Below are positions 36,217-55,252 of a stretch of DNA of 64,000 bases, in pieces. Origin of the DNA: Candidatus Woesebacteria bacterium. Lineage in GTDB: Bacteria > Patescibacteriota > Microgenomatia > UBA8517. The notes below the pieces were generated by a model, which was not told the DNA's origin, searched no databases, and saw nothing but the letters and a program-made list of their open reading frames with translations. Every line of letters starts with the position of its first letter. Positions within the stretch are counted from its first letter, which is position 1. Made by a program: the position numbers and the translations under genes. Location of the stretch: contig CP066693.1 in assembly GCA_016432525.1 (NCBI GenBank), positions 96,815 through 160,814 of the forward strand. Direction: 5' to 3'.

Positions 36217-36288
36217 GCCTAATTAGCCACAATTATAGGCTTGACAAATAGCACTCTCTCTGATATACTGCTAAAAGATTTAAGGCTA

Positions 36289-36323: not shown

Positions 36324-36465
36324 AAAGCACATTAAAAATACGAGTGGAACTGGATGACACTTCCCTGGGTATGAGCAATTGCTCGTGCCTTGGTATGTGT
36401 CATCCAACTAAGTGCACAAAGCTGGATGGCCTATCGTTCAATAAGCCAACAAGGTGGAGGGCCAA

Positions 36466-37791
36466 ATGCGTAATAAAATCATCGCAACAGTAGTAGTTAT
36501 TTCTCTTTTGTCCGTAGTCACGCCAGCTTTGGCATGGCACGGGCAATTATCCATTACAGTTGACTGTAATGGCGGATCGGCACGGGTAACCCCTGTACCG
36601 AGTAGCGATGTCGTTGAACAATCTGTTTCTTCCAGCTCTTGGAGTTGGGGCGGTAAAAATTCAATTACCGTATCAGGCCATATCAAATGGCATTATCAGA
36701 GGAACGGCAAATGGGTGGATGAAGTTTGGAATGGCAGCCAAGTGGCAACAAAGCCAAATGGTTGCAGTACACCACCCTCAACGTCTACTACGCCAGCATC
36801 AACATTGACGCAACCCTCGCCGACCCAACCATCAATCTGGAGTCCTGGCTGGGCCGCATGCGACTGGAACGAGAAAGACGTTCCCGCAGAGCAGATGAAC
36901 GATTGGCTGTTCCGCTGTTCACCTAAACAAGAAGTGACGGCAGCAAAACCAAAAGTCAACGACTGTTCGGTTCAAGACATGATTCTGGCCCAGGTCCGCA
37001 ATGGCAGCCAAACCGACATCTGGATTTATCGTCCCGGTGTTGAGGATGGCAAAGGCGCGTTCAAGGTGACGTGGAAACCCGAGTTAAAGGGTCAAAACGT
37101 TAACGCGTCTTTCAGCCCCAACGGTTGCAAGATCGTCTTGTCCAATACTGGTCGACTGTTTGTTGTATCGATCGACGGCTCAAGCGTCGAGCGGATCACC
37201 AACACAGGCAAAGATATTCAGCCCAACTGGGCAAGCGATTGGTCAATCTATTTCGTCCGCAAGGACATTTTGACCGTCACTGATCAATGGGGCAAAAAAC
37301 CCACCAGTTTATCCGTCTCGGGTTTCCTTCCCCATGCTTCGCCTGATGCCAAGCAGATCGTTTTCATCAACGATGGCTTAGTTAGCATTGTTGACAAAGA
37401 CGGAAAGAATTTCAAAGGTCTCGGCATCGAGGCAATTAACGCTCTTTGGACACCAAACGGTGCTGGCCTGGTCTATACGACCACTATGGAGGAATTCTGG
37501 TCCTTCAATTTTGCATCACATGCAACAAAAAGGATCGGAAGACCGTTCGAGTCTCGCCAGATAGTCTTGGATCCTACGGGGCTCAACAGAATGGCCGTTG
37601 CCCAAGCAGTTCCATTGGAATCACCCAAGCTTTGGCTTGAAGGTGAGAACAGCAATTTCGTTCTCAACCTCCCGAACCAGGAAGGCCTCGCTTTCCCTGA
37701 TTGGTGGGTTCCAAGCTCTCGCCGCGCGCGGTTCGATAGTTCAATAGTCGTAGCTTTTCTAACGACAACCACAAGCGACTTGAGCTTTTAG
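36466..37791 (+). CDS. Secreted protein with C-terminal TolB/PD40-like beta-propeller repeats (hypothetical)
   Basis: Signal peptide 'MRNKIIATVVVISLLSVVTPALA' and an S/T/P-rich linker. Repeats such as 'SFSPNGCKIVLSN...VVSIDGSSVERIT' resemble PD40 blades. Confidence 0.5.
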   Translation: MRNKIIATVVVISLLSVVTPALAWHGQLSITVDCNGGSARVTPVPSSDVVEQSVSSSSWSWGGKNSITVSGHIKWHYQRNGKWVDEVWNGSQVATKPNGCSTPPSTSTTPASTLTQPSPTQPSIWSPGWAACDWNEKDVPAEQMNDWLFRCSPKQEVTAAKPKVNDCSVQDMILAQVRNGSQTDIWIYRPGVEDGKGAFKVTWKPELKGQNVNASFSPNGCKIVLSNTGRLFVVSIDGSSVERITNTGKDIQPNWASDWSIYFVRKDILTVTDQWGKKPTSLSVSGFLPHASPDAKQIVFINDGLVSIVDKDGKNFKGLGIEAINALWTPNGAGLVYTTTMEEFWSFNFASHATKRIGRPFESRQIVLDPTGLNRMAVAQAVPLESPKLWLEGENSNFVLNLPNQEGLAFPDWWVPSSRRARFDSSIVVAFLTTTTSDLSF

Positions 37792-37832
37792 TTCCACTCT
37801 CGTACCTGACTTTTTAGTCAGATAAAGCGTTA

Positions 37833-37916
37833 GGTGGTGACACTTAAGTAGGATAGAAAGATGAATATTGATCATTGCGATCAAACAAATTCGTTTTTCT
37901 TACCGAAGTCACCACC
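37833..37916 (+). other. Long-range inverted repeat GGTGGTGAC...GTCACCACC (9-bp stem, 66-nt loop with nested TTGATC-attgc-GATCAA)
   Basis: Seen directly. Lies immediately upstream of the hammerhead motif. Confidence 0.4.
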
Positions 37917-37926
37917 TTAGCGCCAC

Positions 37927-37995
37927 GCAGTCTACCGCGATTAAATCGGTACTGATGAGTCCTGCGAAGCTTTACGCGAAGTGGGACGAAACTGC
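37927..37995 (+). ncRNA. Hammerhead ribozyme motif (type III topology)
   Basis: gcaGUC|UACCG-cgauuaaau-CGGUA-CUGAUGA-GUCC-[21-nt loop]-GGAC-GAAAC-UGC. All core nucleotides are present (C3-A9 CUGAUGA, G10.1-C11.1, G12A13A14, A15.1-U16.1, GUC cleavage triplet at 37930-37932). Helix I is 5 bp, helix II 4 bp, helix III 5 bp. Confidence 0.7.
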
Positions 37996-38030
37996 AACTG
38001 CTGATCTTTCAAATAAGGAGACACTGCCCC

Positions 38031-38633
38031 ATGAGTAAGAAACTTCTGGTCTCAATTTTCGTCATCGTTGTTGTTTCAATTTCAAGCGTTGCTTTCGCCC
38101 AGTCCCGCCCGACCGTTGCCCAGGACATTCCCTGCGAACTTCCCTGGACAACCACTCTTGGCTATTGGATCCGCGTTCAAACCAATTTCAACGATAACAT
38201 CGCATCCAACCTGTTTTTTATGATTAAAATCGACACAGACAAATGGACTGATCCCGAAGGTAAAGTCCACATGCGAGACGAAATAGTACCAGCAACGATG
38301 CATTACAGAGGTGATTTCACCTGTTATGTCATGTACGGCCTGGAAAATGGTGGGTACACCATTTTTAACCAGACAGGTCGCGAGATGTCTGTTAAAGACA
38401 TTAGGTTTTACATTGAAACCGTCGACCAAGAAGTAAGAGAGTCACAAATCTATGTAACATCAGACGGCAAATGGCATCTGCAAATTATTCCTGGACAGAA
38501 GCTTGATCGTAATGTCTGGGAAACTTTTCTCACAAAAAAGGGCTATGCAGAGCATGATATCGAAGAAATCTGGCAAATTGTCCAGAAACTGAAACCTTAT
38601 CAAGTCTTTGAGCTCCCAGCCCACGGCCATTAG
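38031..38633 (+). CDS. Hypothetical secreted protein
   Basis: Signal peptide 'MSKKLLVSIFVIVVVSISSVAFA'. 200 aa. High GC. Confidence 0.5.
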   Translation: MSKKLLVSIFVIVVVSISSVAFAQSRPTVAQDIPCELPWTTTLGYWIRVQTNFNDNIASNLFFMIKIDTDKWTDPEGKVHMRDEIVPATMHYRGDFTCYVMYGLENGGYTIFNQTGREMSVKDIRFYIETVDQEVRESQIYVTSDGKWHLQIIPGQKLDRNVWETFLTKKGYAEHDIEEIWQIVQKLKPYQVFELPAHGH

Positions 38634-38869
38634 TAGTAGCCAAAGTTTGAATATTTTTGGGATGAAGTGAACGCTTCAAAAAGTAGTCCTTCATCCCAAC
38701 AATTTAACCCCATAATATTTGACTTCCTTTATACCTCATGATATCCTATATAATTTTCCATTACCTTAGTACATTCAAATTCTAGCTTTGTTATGAGGCA
38801 AGTTCCTTAGTCCCATAGCAATATGCAGACTATCTCAATCGACCGGTCGATGTTTTTAGGAGGTGCGCA

Positions 38870-39472
38870 ATGTTGCGCAAATACGCAAAGTTCATTATCG
38901 TTTTCGCGTTCCTTGTAGGCTCGCTCGGCTTCCTTGCCCAACCAGCCCACGCAGCAGGAAATTTCTCCTGCTCCATTTCGATCTCGTCAGGCCCAACCTG
39001 GTGGGAAAGAAACTTTACTGTGAGTTGGAGCGGAGCCGGAAATGACTGGCACCAACTCGCCTTTGGCGATGGAGCTCAAACTGGCCTCTTTGGAGACTCT
39101 GGCAACGAAACCCGTCCACACGGGTTCAACCCTGGTAGTTACATTATAAGTTTCAACAACGGTTGCCCGTCACCGTTTACACTTTCCGCCAACCAAAGCA
39201 CCAGTGTTACTGCAAATCCAGCTCCTGCACAATGGGTCGAACCAGACCATCATGCCACCTTTTTCGGCCTGACTGACGGGCCATATTTCCTAGCCTGGCA
39301 AGACGGCGCTGGAAACTACCAGCAAACAAGTTGGCAGCTTGAATCCAAAAAGGCCAAGCTTGGACTAACAATGCAGTCCGGCAAACGCGGCAACTACGCC
39401 ATCGTCAAGAACGGCAAAGTATTCTGCCAGTTCACTATCAACATCGATGGTATTCACAAGAAGAACTGCTAG
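38870..39472 (+). CDS. Hypothetical secreted protein
   Basis: Signal peptide '...FLVGSLGFLAQPAHA'. 200 aa. High GC. Confidence 0.5.
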   Translation: MLRKYAKFIIVFAFLVGSLGFLAQPAHAAGNFSCSISISSGPTWWERNFTVSWSGAGNDWHQLAFGDGAQTGLFGDSGNETRPHGFNPGSYIISFNNGCPSPFTLSANQSTSVTANPAPAQWVEPDHHATFFGLTDGPYFLAWQDGAGNYQQTSWQLESKKAKLGLTMQSGKRGNYAIVKNGKVFCQFTINIDGIHKKNC

Positions 39473-39539: not shown

Positions 39540-40952
39540 TTAAAACAAACTAATTTGTGCCTTCTTTAATTTTTTCCTCTCAATTCTTTTTATTATCTTC
39601 TCCATTTTTGGATCAATCATTTCAATTAATTTTTCATCTCTCAAATCTTTCAAAAATCTAGATACTTTCATTACCTTTCCATTTCTTCTGCGTGAATACA
39701 TTAAATAAAGTTTCTGTTTTGCTCTTGTCATGGAAACATACAAAAGTCTTTTTTCTTCATCAATATCGCTTCTTTTTTCATTAAAATTTTCCTCAAAACC
39801 AATAATAAACACATTCTCGAATTCCAGCCCTTTTGATGCATGCATGGTAAGAAGTGTCACACAGTTTAAATTCGGATCATAAAACTCTCTTCCCTCCAAG
39901 TCTTCAACATATTCCAAAAATCGCTTTATACCATCCTTGTATTTATCAAATCTTTTAACTAATGACAAAATCTCACTATCTTCTGAAAATTTCTTAACTA
40001 ATTTAGAAAGTTTATCCTCTCTCCCTTCATATTTCTTAATCTTTTCAATTAAAGATTTCGTCTCTTTTTTCTCCCAAATGCTTCCTCCCCCAACCATCTG
40101 ATATGGAATTCCAGATTGCTTTAAAGCATTCTCTACACTCTCTCTCAAAAAATGATTTCTATAAATTACTGCAAAGTCACTAAATTTTTGATCTCCTTCG
40201 TTCACACTATTAAGATCAACCCCTCCAGTTCCAGACATAATCGTTGAAACTATAAAATCCGCTTCAGCTTTGTGATTTAAAAATTCAATTAGTTTAACTT
40301 CACCTTCCTCTTTTTTAATGTTGTGAAGTTTTGTTATTTCTGGAAAAAGTTTTTGAGAAACTGTTGTTATATTTTTGTAACTTCTGTAATTTTCCGAAAG
40401 TTTTATTTCTCTGTATTCAGGAAAGTCCTTTTTGAAAGCTTCAAATATGCCAAAGTTTGCTCCTCTAAAAGAATAAATAGATTGATAAGGATCCCCAATC
40501 ACAATAATGTTTTTGGGAGATATAATTTTTAAAATCTCATATTGAACTTCACTTGTATCTTGAAATTCATCAACCAAAACATGAGAAAAATTTAAGTTTA
40601 TTTTTTTATTTTTCAGAAGTTCCAGAAATTCCAAAAGAAGCCTTTCGTAATCTTCGTCATTTTCTATTTCAAATTGTTCAACTTGGGAAACAAACTGGAA
40701 AGCAAGTGAGTGAAATGTTCCAATAAAAGCTTTATTTTTAAAATTATCTTTTAATCTTTCTTTTATTTCCTGTGAAGCTTTCCTCGTAAAAGTAAGCGCA
40801 AGTATTTTTGATGGATTATTTTTTTGAGAAGTTATTAAATTTTGAAGTTTGGCAACTAGCGTCCTAGTTTTTCCAGTTCCAGGCCCGGCAATCACAACAA
40901 TCGGCCTGTACTGAATTTTCAAAACTTTCTTCTGCTCCCAATTTAACTCCAT
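39540..40952 (-). CDS. Compact UvrD/PcrA-family (SF1) DNA helicase
   Basis: Motifs 'GPGTGKT', 'VLVDEFQDTS', 'VIGDPYQSIYSFRGA', 'LSENYRS', 'LLTMHASKGLEFENV' and 'LLYVSMTRAKQKLYL'. 470 aa. Confidence 0.8.
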   Translation of the reverse strand: MELNWEQKKVLKIQYRPIVVIAGPGTGKTRTLVAKLQNLITSQKNNPSKILALTFTRKASQEIKERLKDNFKNKAFIGTFHSLAFQFVSQVEQFEIENDEDYERLLLEFLELLKNKKINLNFSHVLVDEFQDTSEVQYEILKIISPKNIIVIGDPYQSIYSFRGANFGIFEAFKKDFPEYREIKLSENYRSYKNITTVSQKLFPEITKLHNIKKEEGEVKLIEFLNHKAEADFIVSTIMSGTGGVDLNSVNEGDQKFSDFAVIYRNHFLRESVENALKQSGIPYQMVGGGSIWEKKETKSLIEKIKKYEGREDKLSKLVKKFSEDSEILSLVKRFDKYKDGIKRFLEYVEDLEGREFYDPNLNCVTLLTMHASKGLEFENVFIIGFEENFNEKRSDIDEEKRLLYVSMTRAKQKLYLMYSRRRNGKVMKVSRFLKDLRDEKLIEMIDPKMEKIIKRIERKKLKKAQISLF

Positions 40953-54934: not shown

Positions 54935-54967
54935 TTAGAGGACTACTGGACTGAAAATCCAACTCTG

Positions 54968-55252
54968 CTCCCCCGGTAGGATTCGAACCTACGACCTTAT
55001 CCTTACTCGTACCCCGAAATTTCTTTCGGACGCGGAACTATATCTTACCCATATCATTTTTGATTTAGGGCCCGAGTGCATAGTTTCTGAACCTTCCATA
55101 AATCGTATTCATTCAGATTTATGGCTCGGCTGCGGGTCACCTTGCCAAAAAAGCGAGGGCTTCACGCAATTCTCACGGTTTACATCCTACAGTTTCCTGT
55201 AAGAGCTGCTAAGGAATCACAGGGATCCGCTCTACCGCTGAGCTACAGGGGA
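54968..55252 (-). tRNA. tRNA-Asn(GUU)-like gene interrupted by a group I intron (exon1 55219-55252, exon2 54968-55005)
   Basis: Spliced sequence UCCCCUG-UA-GCUC-AGCGGUA-GAGC-G-GAUCC-CUGU|UAA-GGAUA-AGGUC-GUAGG-UUCGAAU-CCUAC-CGGGGGA-G. U1-A72 and G73 match bacterial tRNA-Asn. The anticodon GUU is split between U35 and U36. Confidence 0.7.
55006..55218 (-). ncRNA. Group I intron (213 nt, no ORF)
   Basis: IGS 5'-UCCUUAGCAG pairs with the 3' exon UAAGGA (P10) and the 5' exon CUGU (P1, U-G at the splice site). Core elements P 'GAAUUGCGUGAA', Q 'CCGCAGCC', R 'GUUCAGAAACUA' and S 'AAGAUAUAGUUCC'. Terminal G precedes the 3' exon. Confidence 0.75.

Follow-up and report, generated by a model that had tools for sequence, protein, structure and literature searches.

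A probable type III hammerhead ribozyme between two co-directional genes of a Candidatus Woesebacteria chromosome

The DNA analyzed here, referred to as the window, is a stretch of 64,000 nucleotides (nt) from a Candidatus Woesebacteria chromosome (GenBank assembly GCA_016432525.1, contig CP066693.1, positions 96,815 to 160,814 of the forward strand), and all positions given below without a locus name are those of the window. Two genes of a GC-rich island, the first encoding a protein of 445 amino acids (aa) and the second a secreted protein of 200 aa, lie there in the same direction, and the spacer between them contains a 69-nt motif at 37927-37995 (+) that reads, directly from the sequence, GCAGUC/UACCG...CGGUA-CUGAUGA-GUCC...GGAC-GAAAC-UGC, where the slash marks the predicted cut. 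A complete type III hammerhead ribozyme had been proposed at this site from the letters of the DNA (hereafter, the original prediction), and its base-level parse was matched exactly when the sequence was reread. The spacing it gave was also correct, since the stop of the upstream open reading frame (ORF) at 37791 lies 135 nt before the motif and the next ATG, at 38031, lies 35 nt after it. Hammerheads are the best-known self-cleaving RNAs. The features of the locus are collected in Table 1.

Table 1. Features of the hammerhead locus, with positions in the window and the basis of each assignment.
Feature	Positions	Strand	Details and basis
Promoter-like site TTGACA-17-TATACT	36241-36269	+	TG before the second hexamer; 11/12 matches; candidate transcript start
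Upstream gene, 445-aa ORF	36454-37791	+	Called as 441 aa from 36466 in the assemblies; signal-peptide-like N-terminus; orphan
Small hairpin CUGACU-UUUU-AGUCAG	37806-37821	+	15 nt past the stop codon; without U-tract; fold
Long imperfect hairpin, 97 nt	37827-37923	+	Very stable; ends 3 nt before the ribozyme; fold
Helix III, 5' strand GCAGU	37927-37931	+	Positions 16.5 to 16.1; sequence and fold
Cleavage-site nucleotide C17	37932	+	Predicted scissile bond 37932/37933; sequence and established hammerhead numbering
Helix I hairpin	37933-37951	+	UACCG (37933-37937) / CGGUA (37947-37951), 9-nt loop; fold
Catalytic core C3 U4 G5 A6 U7 G8 A9 (CUGAUGA)	37952-37958	+	Sequence and Rfam alignment
Helix II	37959-37987	+	G10.1 (37959) to C11.1 (37987), G10.1-C11.1 pair; fold
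Catalytic core G12 A13 A14	37988-37990	+	Sequence and Rfam alignment
Helix III, 3' strand ACUGC	37991-37995	+	Positions 15.1 to 15.5; A15.1 (37991) pairs with U16.1 (37931)
Leader, 35 nt	37996-38030	+	Shine-Dalgarno-like AAGGAG at 38015-38020
Downstream gene, 200 aa	38031-38633	+	Signal peptide MSKKLLVSIFVIVVVSISSVAFA; orphan family; 97-100% DNA identity to L004
Promoter-like site TTGACT-17-TATCCT	38719-38747		Before the third gene

All the nucleotides that define the hammerhead core were present in the motif (C3 to A9, G12 to A14, a nucleotide other than G at position 17 and the A15.1-U16.1 pair), and the topology was of type III, in which loops close helices I and II whereas helix III is open and holds both ends of the motif. 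The minimum free energy (MFE) and centroid folds of 37925-37997 both corresponded to the hammerhead three-way junction, at -21.1 kcal/mol. The cores, the 5-bp helix III and the GUC site were as originally drawn, and the other two helices had to be revised. Helix II, for which 4 bp had been given, consists of 7 bp (GUCCUGC/GUGGGAC) around a 15-nt loop according to both the fold and RNAalifold, and helix I was judged to be better represented by 7 bp with a 2-nt CG bulge and a 3-nt UAA loop than by 5 bp.

The frequency with which such a motif arises by chance was estimated with two type III descriptors and 400 dinucleotide-preserving shuffles of the window. The relaxed descriptor comprised CUGANGA, GAAA, U16.1, any nucleotide but G at position 17 and minimum helix lengths of 4/3/4 bp, which were raised to 5/4/5 bp in the strict one. 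Across the two strands of the 64 kb, the relaxed descriptor found a single match, the window hammerhead, against a shuffle mean of 0.01, and the strict descriptor found no match in any of the 400 shuffles. The motif is far rarer by chance than observed and is more than a coincidence.

The check suggested with the original prediction, an Infernal search with the Rfam model RF00008 (Hammerhead_3), yielded an end-to-end alignment (model positions 1-54 of 54) with a score of 33.8 bits, below the gathering score of 48.5. The corresponding E-value was 8.7e-6 in a search space of 281 nt, 1.3e-4 in one of 4.3 kb and 2e-3 when the 64 kb were searched with all 4227 Rfam families. A score below threshold had been named in advance as a ground for rejecting the ribozyme, and the score obtained does formally fall below it, but a calibration showed that this ground is uninformative. 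Ten other complete type III hammerheads of bacteria and phages, taken from phage and metagenome contigs, scored between 27.2 and 49.8 bits and only one of them reached 48.5; because the other nine also remained below the cut-off, a value of 33.8 bits says little about the window copy. For such hammerheads the gathering score does not discriminate and the score of the window copy is typical; the Hammerhead_3 cut-off is an operational criterion and not a biochemical one. At gathering thresholds, Rfam reported only the transfer-messenger RNA (tmRNA) and the transfer RNAs (tRNAs) across the window. No match to twister or to other ribozyme families was found in the window with the 4227 families, and the descriptor and Rfam together located just one hammerhead in it.

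Comparative evidence was sought through the flanking proteins, both encoded by orphan genes, and this approach returned just one relative that is diverged at the hammerhead locus, designated L004 (from GCA_040960765.1). The identical 200-aa protein was also found on three contigs (L001-L003, one of them in GCA_016178105.1), all of which carry an identical hammerhead and add no comparative information; the locus is also present in the metagenomes SRR12113414 and SRR12113415. Homology to L004 begins, according to BLAST, at window position 37909, 18 nt 5' of the ribozyme. Upstream of approximately 37900 the DNA identity is 23-50% in gapped alignments, which makes the region effectively unalignable, and it reaches 75-87% in the two 60-nt windows across the hammerhead, 97-100% in the 200-aa gene, ~55-60% in the next gene (38870-39472) past the signal peptide and ~80-90% in UvrD.

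Within the hammerhead, the window and L004 copies differ by seven substitutions and one 2-nt indel, a divergence of ~10% inside the motif, with the core, the cleavage site and helix III unchanged. Five of the seven substitutions fall in helices I and II, and pairing is preserved at all five of them, including a compensatory change in helix I (one C-G to U-A) and three one-sided changes in helix II (U.G to C-G, G.U to G-C and C-G to U.G). The RNAalifold consensus of the two copies was again the hammerhead, with 21 pairs, one of them compensatory, three changed on one side and none broken. Moreover, the L004 copy on its own folded as a hammerhead (-25.3 kcal/mol, z = -4.1) and was aligned to RF00008 with 38.6 bits. 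The support that this comparison lends to conservation appears real but modest, and the retention of the hammerhead, with its pairing, beside a spacer that can no longer be aligned points to purifying selection in the host. A coding explanation for the region, a 56-aa ORF at 37868-38038, was ruled out by the 2-nt indels in L004, one in helix I and the other just 3' of helix III.

The core, the MFE fold, the full-length alignment to RF00008, the rarity of the motif and its retention in L004 thus bear out the central claim of the original prediction. The segment 37927-37995 is very probably a complete type III hammerhead between two co-directional genes, and it is highly likely to be catalytically competent.

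A wider class of type III hammerheads was assembled from metagenomes and viral contigs. The metagenome scan used the pattern GTCTACN{7,17}GTACTGATGAGTCCN{4,34}GGACGAAAC, where nothing is fixed beyond the core, the cleavage triplet and the basal pairs of helices I and II, and it retrieved 28 loci of this descriptor class, none of them a close relative of the window copy. The viral contigs gave further hammerheads of types I, II and III. The class set consisted of 29 unique type III hammerheads matching GUCUAC..GUACUGAUGAGUCC..GGACGAAAC, a pattern that was itself derived from the window sequence. At positions that the pattern leaves free, pairs 3-6 of helix III were formed in 100/93/69/66% of the members, against 34-40% with shuffled partners, and pairs 4-6 of helix I in 100/100/86%, against 45-68%. 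All four types of Watson-Crick pair occur at these free positions. Such strong pairing at unfixed positions indicates that the descriptor captures bona fide ribozymes and that the window motif belongs with them.

Almost every member of the class lies in a spacer flanked by ORFs of the same strand, and the distance to the following start codon is often 0-40 nt. Some are located on IMG/VR viral contigs (e.g., L016 and L018), and on some contigs (L024, L048 and L050) two hammerheads flank genes, as in the prophages of Perreault et al. (2011). On the minus strand of the metagenomic locus L035 (1763-2233), a type III hammerhead (2174-2233) is followed after ~260 nt by a tandem pair of tRNA genes in the same orientation (1839-1910 and 1763-1834), an arrangement that points to tRNA genes as another possible downstream neighbor of the class. 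Additional routes to closer relatives were unproductive: a scan of a genome collection with CTGATGAGTCCN{10,30}GGGACGAAACTGC returned one unrelated site in a Planctomycetaceae genome, and a scan of viral sequences for hammerheads with a long helix II gave mostly type I ribozymes and no relative of the window copy.

The spacer 5' of the ribozyme (37792-37926) is itself highly structured, folding at -48.6 kcal/mol with z = -7.75. The 9-bp inverted repeat that had been noticed there (37833-37916) was confirmed, and its arms, GGTGGTGAC (37833-37841) and GTCACCACC (37908-37916), form the base of a much longer hairpin that spans 37827-37923. A hairpin of equal stability occupies the corresponding position in L004 (z = -8.6), with a sequence that resembles that of the window hairpin only at the base of the stem. 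Neither this hairpin nor the smaller one upstream is followed by a U-tract, and the reading of the two as intrinsic terminators was rejected; a repeat or miniature transposable element was also discarded as the origin of the spacer, given that no second copy exists within the window.

A stable structure at this position was also found in the class. For 31 hammerheads (those of the window and L004 and loci among L016-L050, some of them related to each other), the 100 nt immediately upstream had a mean z of -3.45, compared with -0.81 at random positions and -0.73 in post-stop regions (Mann-Whitney p = 2e-6 and 2.5e-7, respectively), and z was below -4 for 39% of the 31 hammerheads versus 2-4% of the controls. 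At many loci of the class, the upstream hairpin ends 0-3 nt from helix III. Hairpin and hammerhead might make up a recurrent two-part module for RNA processing in the type III hammerheads of bacteria and phages, a proposal that we regard as tentative and somewhat doubtful. If it were correct, the stem-loop would cap the 3' end of the upstream RNA and the body of the ribozyme would cap the downstream 5'-OH, so that transcripts would be separated independently of a terminator. The window site would then be, in addition, the first example known from a genome of the Candidate Phyla Radiation, a group with a reduced gene repertoire.

These features can be brought together in a putative mechanism. 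The ribozyme would be transcribed within an RNA running from the 445-aa gene into the gene of the 200-aa secreted protein, and its three-way junction would fold as it emerges. Self-cleavage after C17 (37932), by internal transesterification, would leave an upstream RNA ending in hairpin-CACGCAGUC with a 2',3'-cyclic phosphate, 9 nt past the 97-nt hairpin, which should block 3' exonucleases on this fragment. The downstream mRNA would start with a 5'-OH and helices I and II, followed by the 35-nt leader with its ribosome-binding site. As a net effect, the mRNAs of the two genes would be uncoupled, each with a protected end.

The reading preferred here is that the hammerhead is genuine and cleaves an RNA transcribed jointly from the 445-aa and 200-aa genes, with a role in processing, and a probability of roughly 0.6 is assigned to it. 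It is based on the motif, its fold and rarity, the pair-preserving conservation, the adjacent and structurally conserved hairpin and the co-directional genes. We infer from these data the co-transcription, the cleavage in the cell and the stabilizing consequences. The processing of a polycistronic mRNA, already put forward in the original prediction, is plausible because the genes are co-directional and no promoter-like site is found in the spacer: no sigma-70-like promoter was predicted between 37792 and 38030, with a consensus that may not suit Woesebacteria. Tandem bacterial hammerheads have been found to cut polycistronic constructs of ~2 kb in vitro, and processing into single-gene mRNAs was proposed for them (Perreault et al., 2011, PMC3088659). 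The function of bacterial hammerheads is still unsettled, and this processing role has been proposed but never established (PMC6765202; PMC3088659).

Several observations weigh against this reading. Neither the window copy (33.8 bits) nor that of L004 (38.6 bits) attains the gathering score of RF00008, and helix II, at 7 bp and with 15 nt in its loop, departs from the 4-bp stems and 4-8-nt loops that predominate in the class. When the full 254-nt spacer was folded, helices I and III were partly mispaired in the MFE structure. A tertiary contact between loops I and II is required for fast hammerhead cleavage at cellular Mg2+; the AU-rich 4-nt complementarities present between the two loops here and in L004 were indistinguishable from chance. 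The comparison involves one diverged relative and mostly cheap transitions at wobble pairs, with a rough joint chance estimate of 0.02-0.05. The spacer may contain an undetected Woesebacteria promoter that is not sigma-70-like. No hammerhead was found upstream of the two distant homologues of the 200-aa gene (L051 and L052), and the ribozyme is thus not a fixed feature of this gene family. Finally, a cruder test of adjacency, which counted structures of at least 10 pairs ending within 4 nt of the ribozyme, gave 52% for the hammerheads and 36% for the controls, which is no clear enrichment, so that only the z-scores of stability differed with clear significance.

Some of these points would also fit an inactive look-alike, arisen by chance or through the decay of a hammerhead, for which the score below the Rfam cut-off, the unusually long loop of helix II, the bulge in helix I, a loop-loop contact that is not demonstrable and the single independent relative could all be invoked. 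This is very improbable in view of the chance expectation (0.01 motifs per window and none in 400 shuffles under the strict descriptor), the consensus nucleotide at every core position and the rule, within the class, that Rfam scores fall below threshold. In L004, moreover, the core is unchanged and every pair is retained despite the ~10% divergence of the motif and the unalignable DNA upstream. Alternatively, the hammerhead might be part of a folding switch, in which GCAGU would pair either with its proper partner ACUGC or with copies of it near the ribosome-binding site, coupling cleavage to the translation of the 200-aa protein. ACUGC occurs three times, at 37991-37995, 37997-38001 and 38023-38027, the first two in tandem and the last between the Shine-Dalgarno sequence and the start codon, and in the MFE structure of the entire spacer the region of the 5' strand is paired with the leader near the Shine-Dalgarno sequence and helix III is not formed. 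The leader is conserved in L004, where the only differences, a single substitution and an indel of 2 nt, are found close to the 5' end and the two sequences are identical from 38002 on, but it lies at the edge of a block of 97-100% identity that includes the whole gene, so that its conservation is uninformative. A repeat of 5 nt carries little weight, L004 has ACCUGC in place of the middle copy and there is no covariation to draw on, all of which makes such a switch improbable.

An active hammerhead could also be a mere passenger without any selected role in the expression of its neighbors, left over from foreign DNA, such as a phage or another mobile element, with which the GC-rich island arrived. 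The island, recognized as such in the original prediction, has 46-49% GC over 36-38 kb versus ~36% elsewhere in the genome, every gene in it is an orphan, and its proteins matched no PHROGs or Pfam family. Integrases and prophages are often found near bacterial hammerheads (PMC3088659), and the viral contigs carrying members of the descriptor class (L016 and L018) point in the same direction. By contrast, no integrase, phage or mobile-element genes were found in or beside this island, whose neighbors are housekeeping genes (PGK, TIM, RpiB, glutaredoxin and UvrD, that is, glycolysis genes and UvrD among them), and neither the 200-aa protein nor the spacer had a match in 50,697 phage records. 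In L004, the portion of the island that was recovered, with the hammerhead and both genes of the 200-aa class, adjoins the same UvrD gene, and this shared position indicates that the island is older than the split of the two lineages. The prophage or integrase context described by Perreault et al. (2011) is likewise absent, with a single hammerhead and no mobile genes. The association with phage or mobile DNA suggested by the original prediction was therefore left unsupported, and an old foreign origin is compatible with the composition of the island and its orphan genes. Since the ribozyme was kept in L004, with its pairing preserved despite the unalignable spacer, in a pattern that points to purifying selection, a passenger without function is considered unlikely, and a processing role for the hammerhead remains the reading favored here.

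The proteins encoded on both sides of the ribozyme were also analyzed. All three proteins of the island start with signal-peptide-like segments. The 445-aa protein matched no PHROGs or Pfam family, and the only homologue found was a fragment of the same protein under the NCBI name Candidatus Woesebacteria. The "beta-propeller" label given to it by the original prediction could not be verified, as the only trace was a sub-threshold Pfam match to DPPIV_N (E 0.012) and the AlphaFold2 model, with a pLDDT of 41, was too uncertain to be interpreted. The promoter-like site upstream of this gene rests on its match to the consensus, and the region as a whole was not enriched over shuffles. In the case of the 200-aa protein, only its own 90% cluster was recovered among 5.8 billion proteins; an exhaustive HMMER search added two full-length distant homologues with 26-32% identity, and a profile search added none. 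The family thus amounts to just three 90% clusters, which makes it extremely rare, and the AlphaFold2 model of the 200-aa protein (pLDDT 60) was also too uncertain to be interpreted.

The region 38031-39472 is a mosaic with respect to L004. The first 200-aa gene is 97-100% identical, and the second (38870-39472) is 98% identical in the region of the signal peptide and ~55-60% in the rest. In the spacer between these two genes (38634-38869), the 120 nt at 38680-38799 are 100% identical to L004, versus a background of ~80-90%, and they include the promoter-like site at 38719-38747. The uneven divergence of the two genes suggests either a tract of recent recombination or selection that differs strongly between these neighboring secreted proteins.

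The proteins of L051 and L052 are 29% identical to each other, yet the two loci share ~100 nt of upstream DNA with ~96% identity (L051 380-470 and L052 1625-1722). This segment contains a stable leader hairpin, AGUGAGCC...GACAAA-UUUUGUC...GGCUCACU, ~12 nt before the ribosome-binding site, and the 79 nt of L051 405-483 folded at -27.2 kcal/mol with z = -4.05. The shared segment had no match in Rfam or on viral contigs and is a different putative conserved RNA or promoter element at the position of the hammerhead.

Two additional RNA features were noted in the window. A tRNA-Asn(GUU) gene at 54961-55252 (-) is apparently split in the anticodon loop by a 213-nt group I intron (55006-55218), which matched Rfam Intron_gpI with 49.4 bits, versus a gathering score of 50 (E = 1.5e-9). 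ARAGORN missed the tRNA-Asn in the raw window and called tRNA-Asn(gtt) once 55006-55218 had been removed in silico. Sub-threshold matches to n00280 ("C. difficile sRNA included into helicase gene") were also obtained at 39688-39785 (-), with 47.9 bits, and at L004 2017-2115 (-), with 51.9 bits, versus a threshold of 65.2 bits. Both lie inside the gene of a UvrD-like helicase and most likely reflect conserved helicase coding sequence, not an RNA gene.

Among known systems, the window hammerhead is closest to the type III hammerheads of bacteria and phages (PMC3088659; RF00008, clan CL00010), with which it shares the core, the GUC triplet, the type III topology, the intergenic placement between co-directional genes near a start codon and the proposed role in cutting transcripts. 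At their bases, helices I and II have the sequences UAC/GUA and GUCC/GGAC, as in the 29 unique phage and metagenome hammerheads. It differs from them in its setting: the chromosome is that of a member of the Candidate Phyla Radiation (Candidatus Woesebacteria), no phage or integrase genes were found in the vicinity, and one ribozyme stands alone instead of two or more around a gene. It is further set apart from the class by the length of helix II (7 bp, with 15 nt in the loop), the 2-nt bulge in helix I and the Rfam score below the cut-off. The classical RF00008 members of viroids and satellite RNAs, such as sTRSV and PLMVd, process multimeric intermediates of rolling-circle replication. The core, topology and cleavage chemistry are common to these and to the window copy, but the latter is a single copy in a DNA genome, between protein genes, with no sign of a circular RNA. 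RiboJ-type synthetic insulators combine a hammerhead with an added hairpin 3' of the ribozyme that exposes the ribosome-binding site. In both arrangements a hammerhead and a stable hairpin would define an mRNA end independently of the upstream sequence, but the hairpin of the window lies 5' of the cleavage site and would remain on the upstream fragment. The twister ribozymes located in the untranslated regions of bacterial mRNAs are also small self-cleaving RNAs in comparable intergenic contexts, with a fold and core unrelated to those of the hammerhead. For twisters and hammerheads alike, it has been suggested that polycistronic transcripts are processed into pieces of differing stability, with the role still unresolved (PMC6765202).

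The search of the literature returned no paper linking hammerheads with the Candidate Phyla Radiation or Patescibacteria, and the host lineage may therefore be new for these ribozymes. This would be a modest extension, since the class has already been found in hundreds of bacteria and phages and in all domains of life. The Rfam cut-off missed nine of the ten hammerheads used for calibration, and routine annotation thus probably undercounts the type III hammerheads of bacteria and phages. As a lone chromosomal ribozyme without phage context, conserved amid divergence and placed beside a stable hairpin, the hammerhead described here offers a clean test case for the role of these RNAs, and the adjacent hairpin suggests a concrete and testable consequence of cleavage, namely protected transcript ends.

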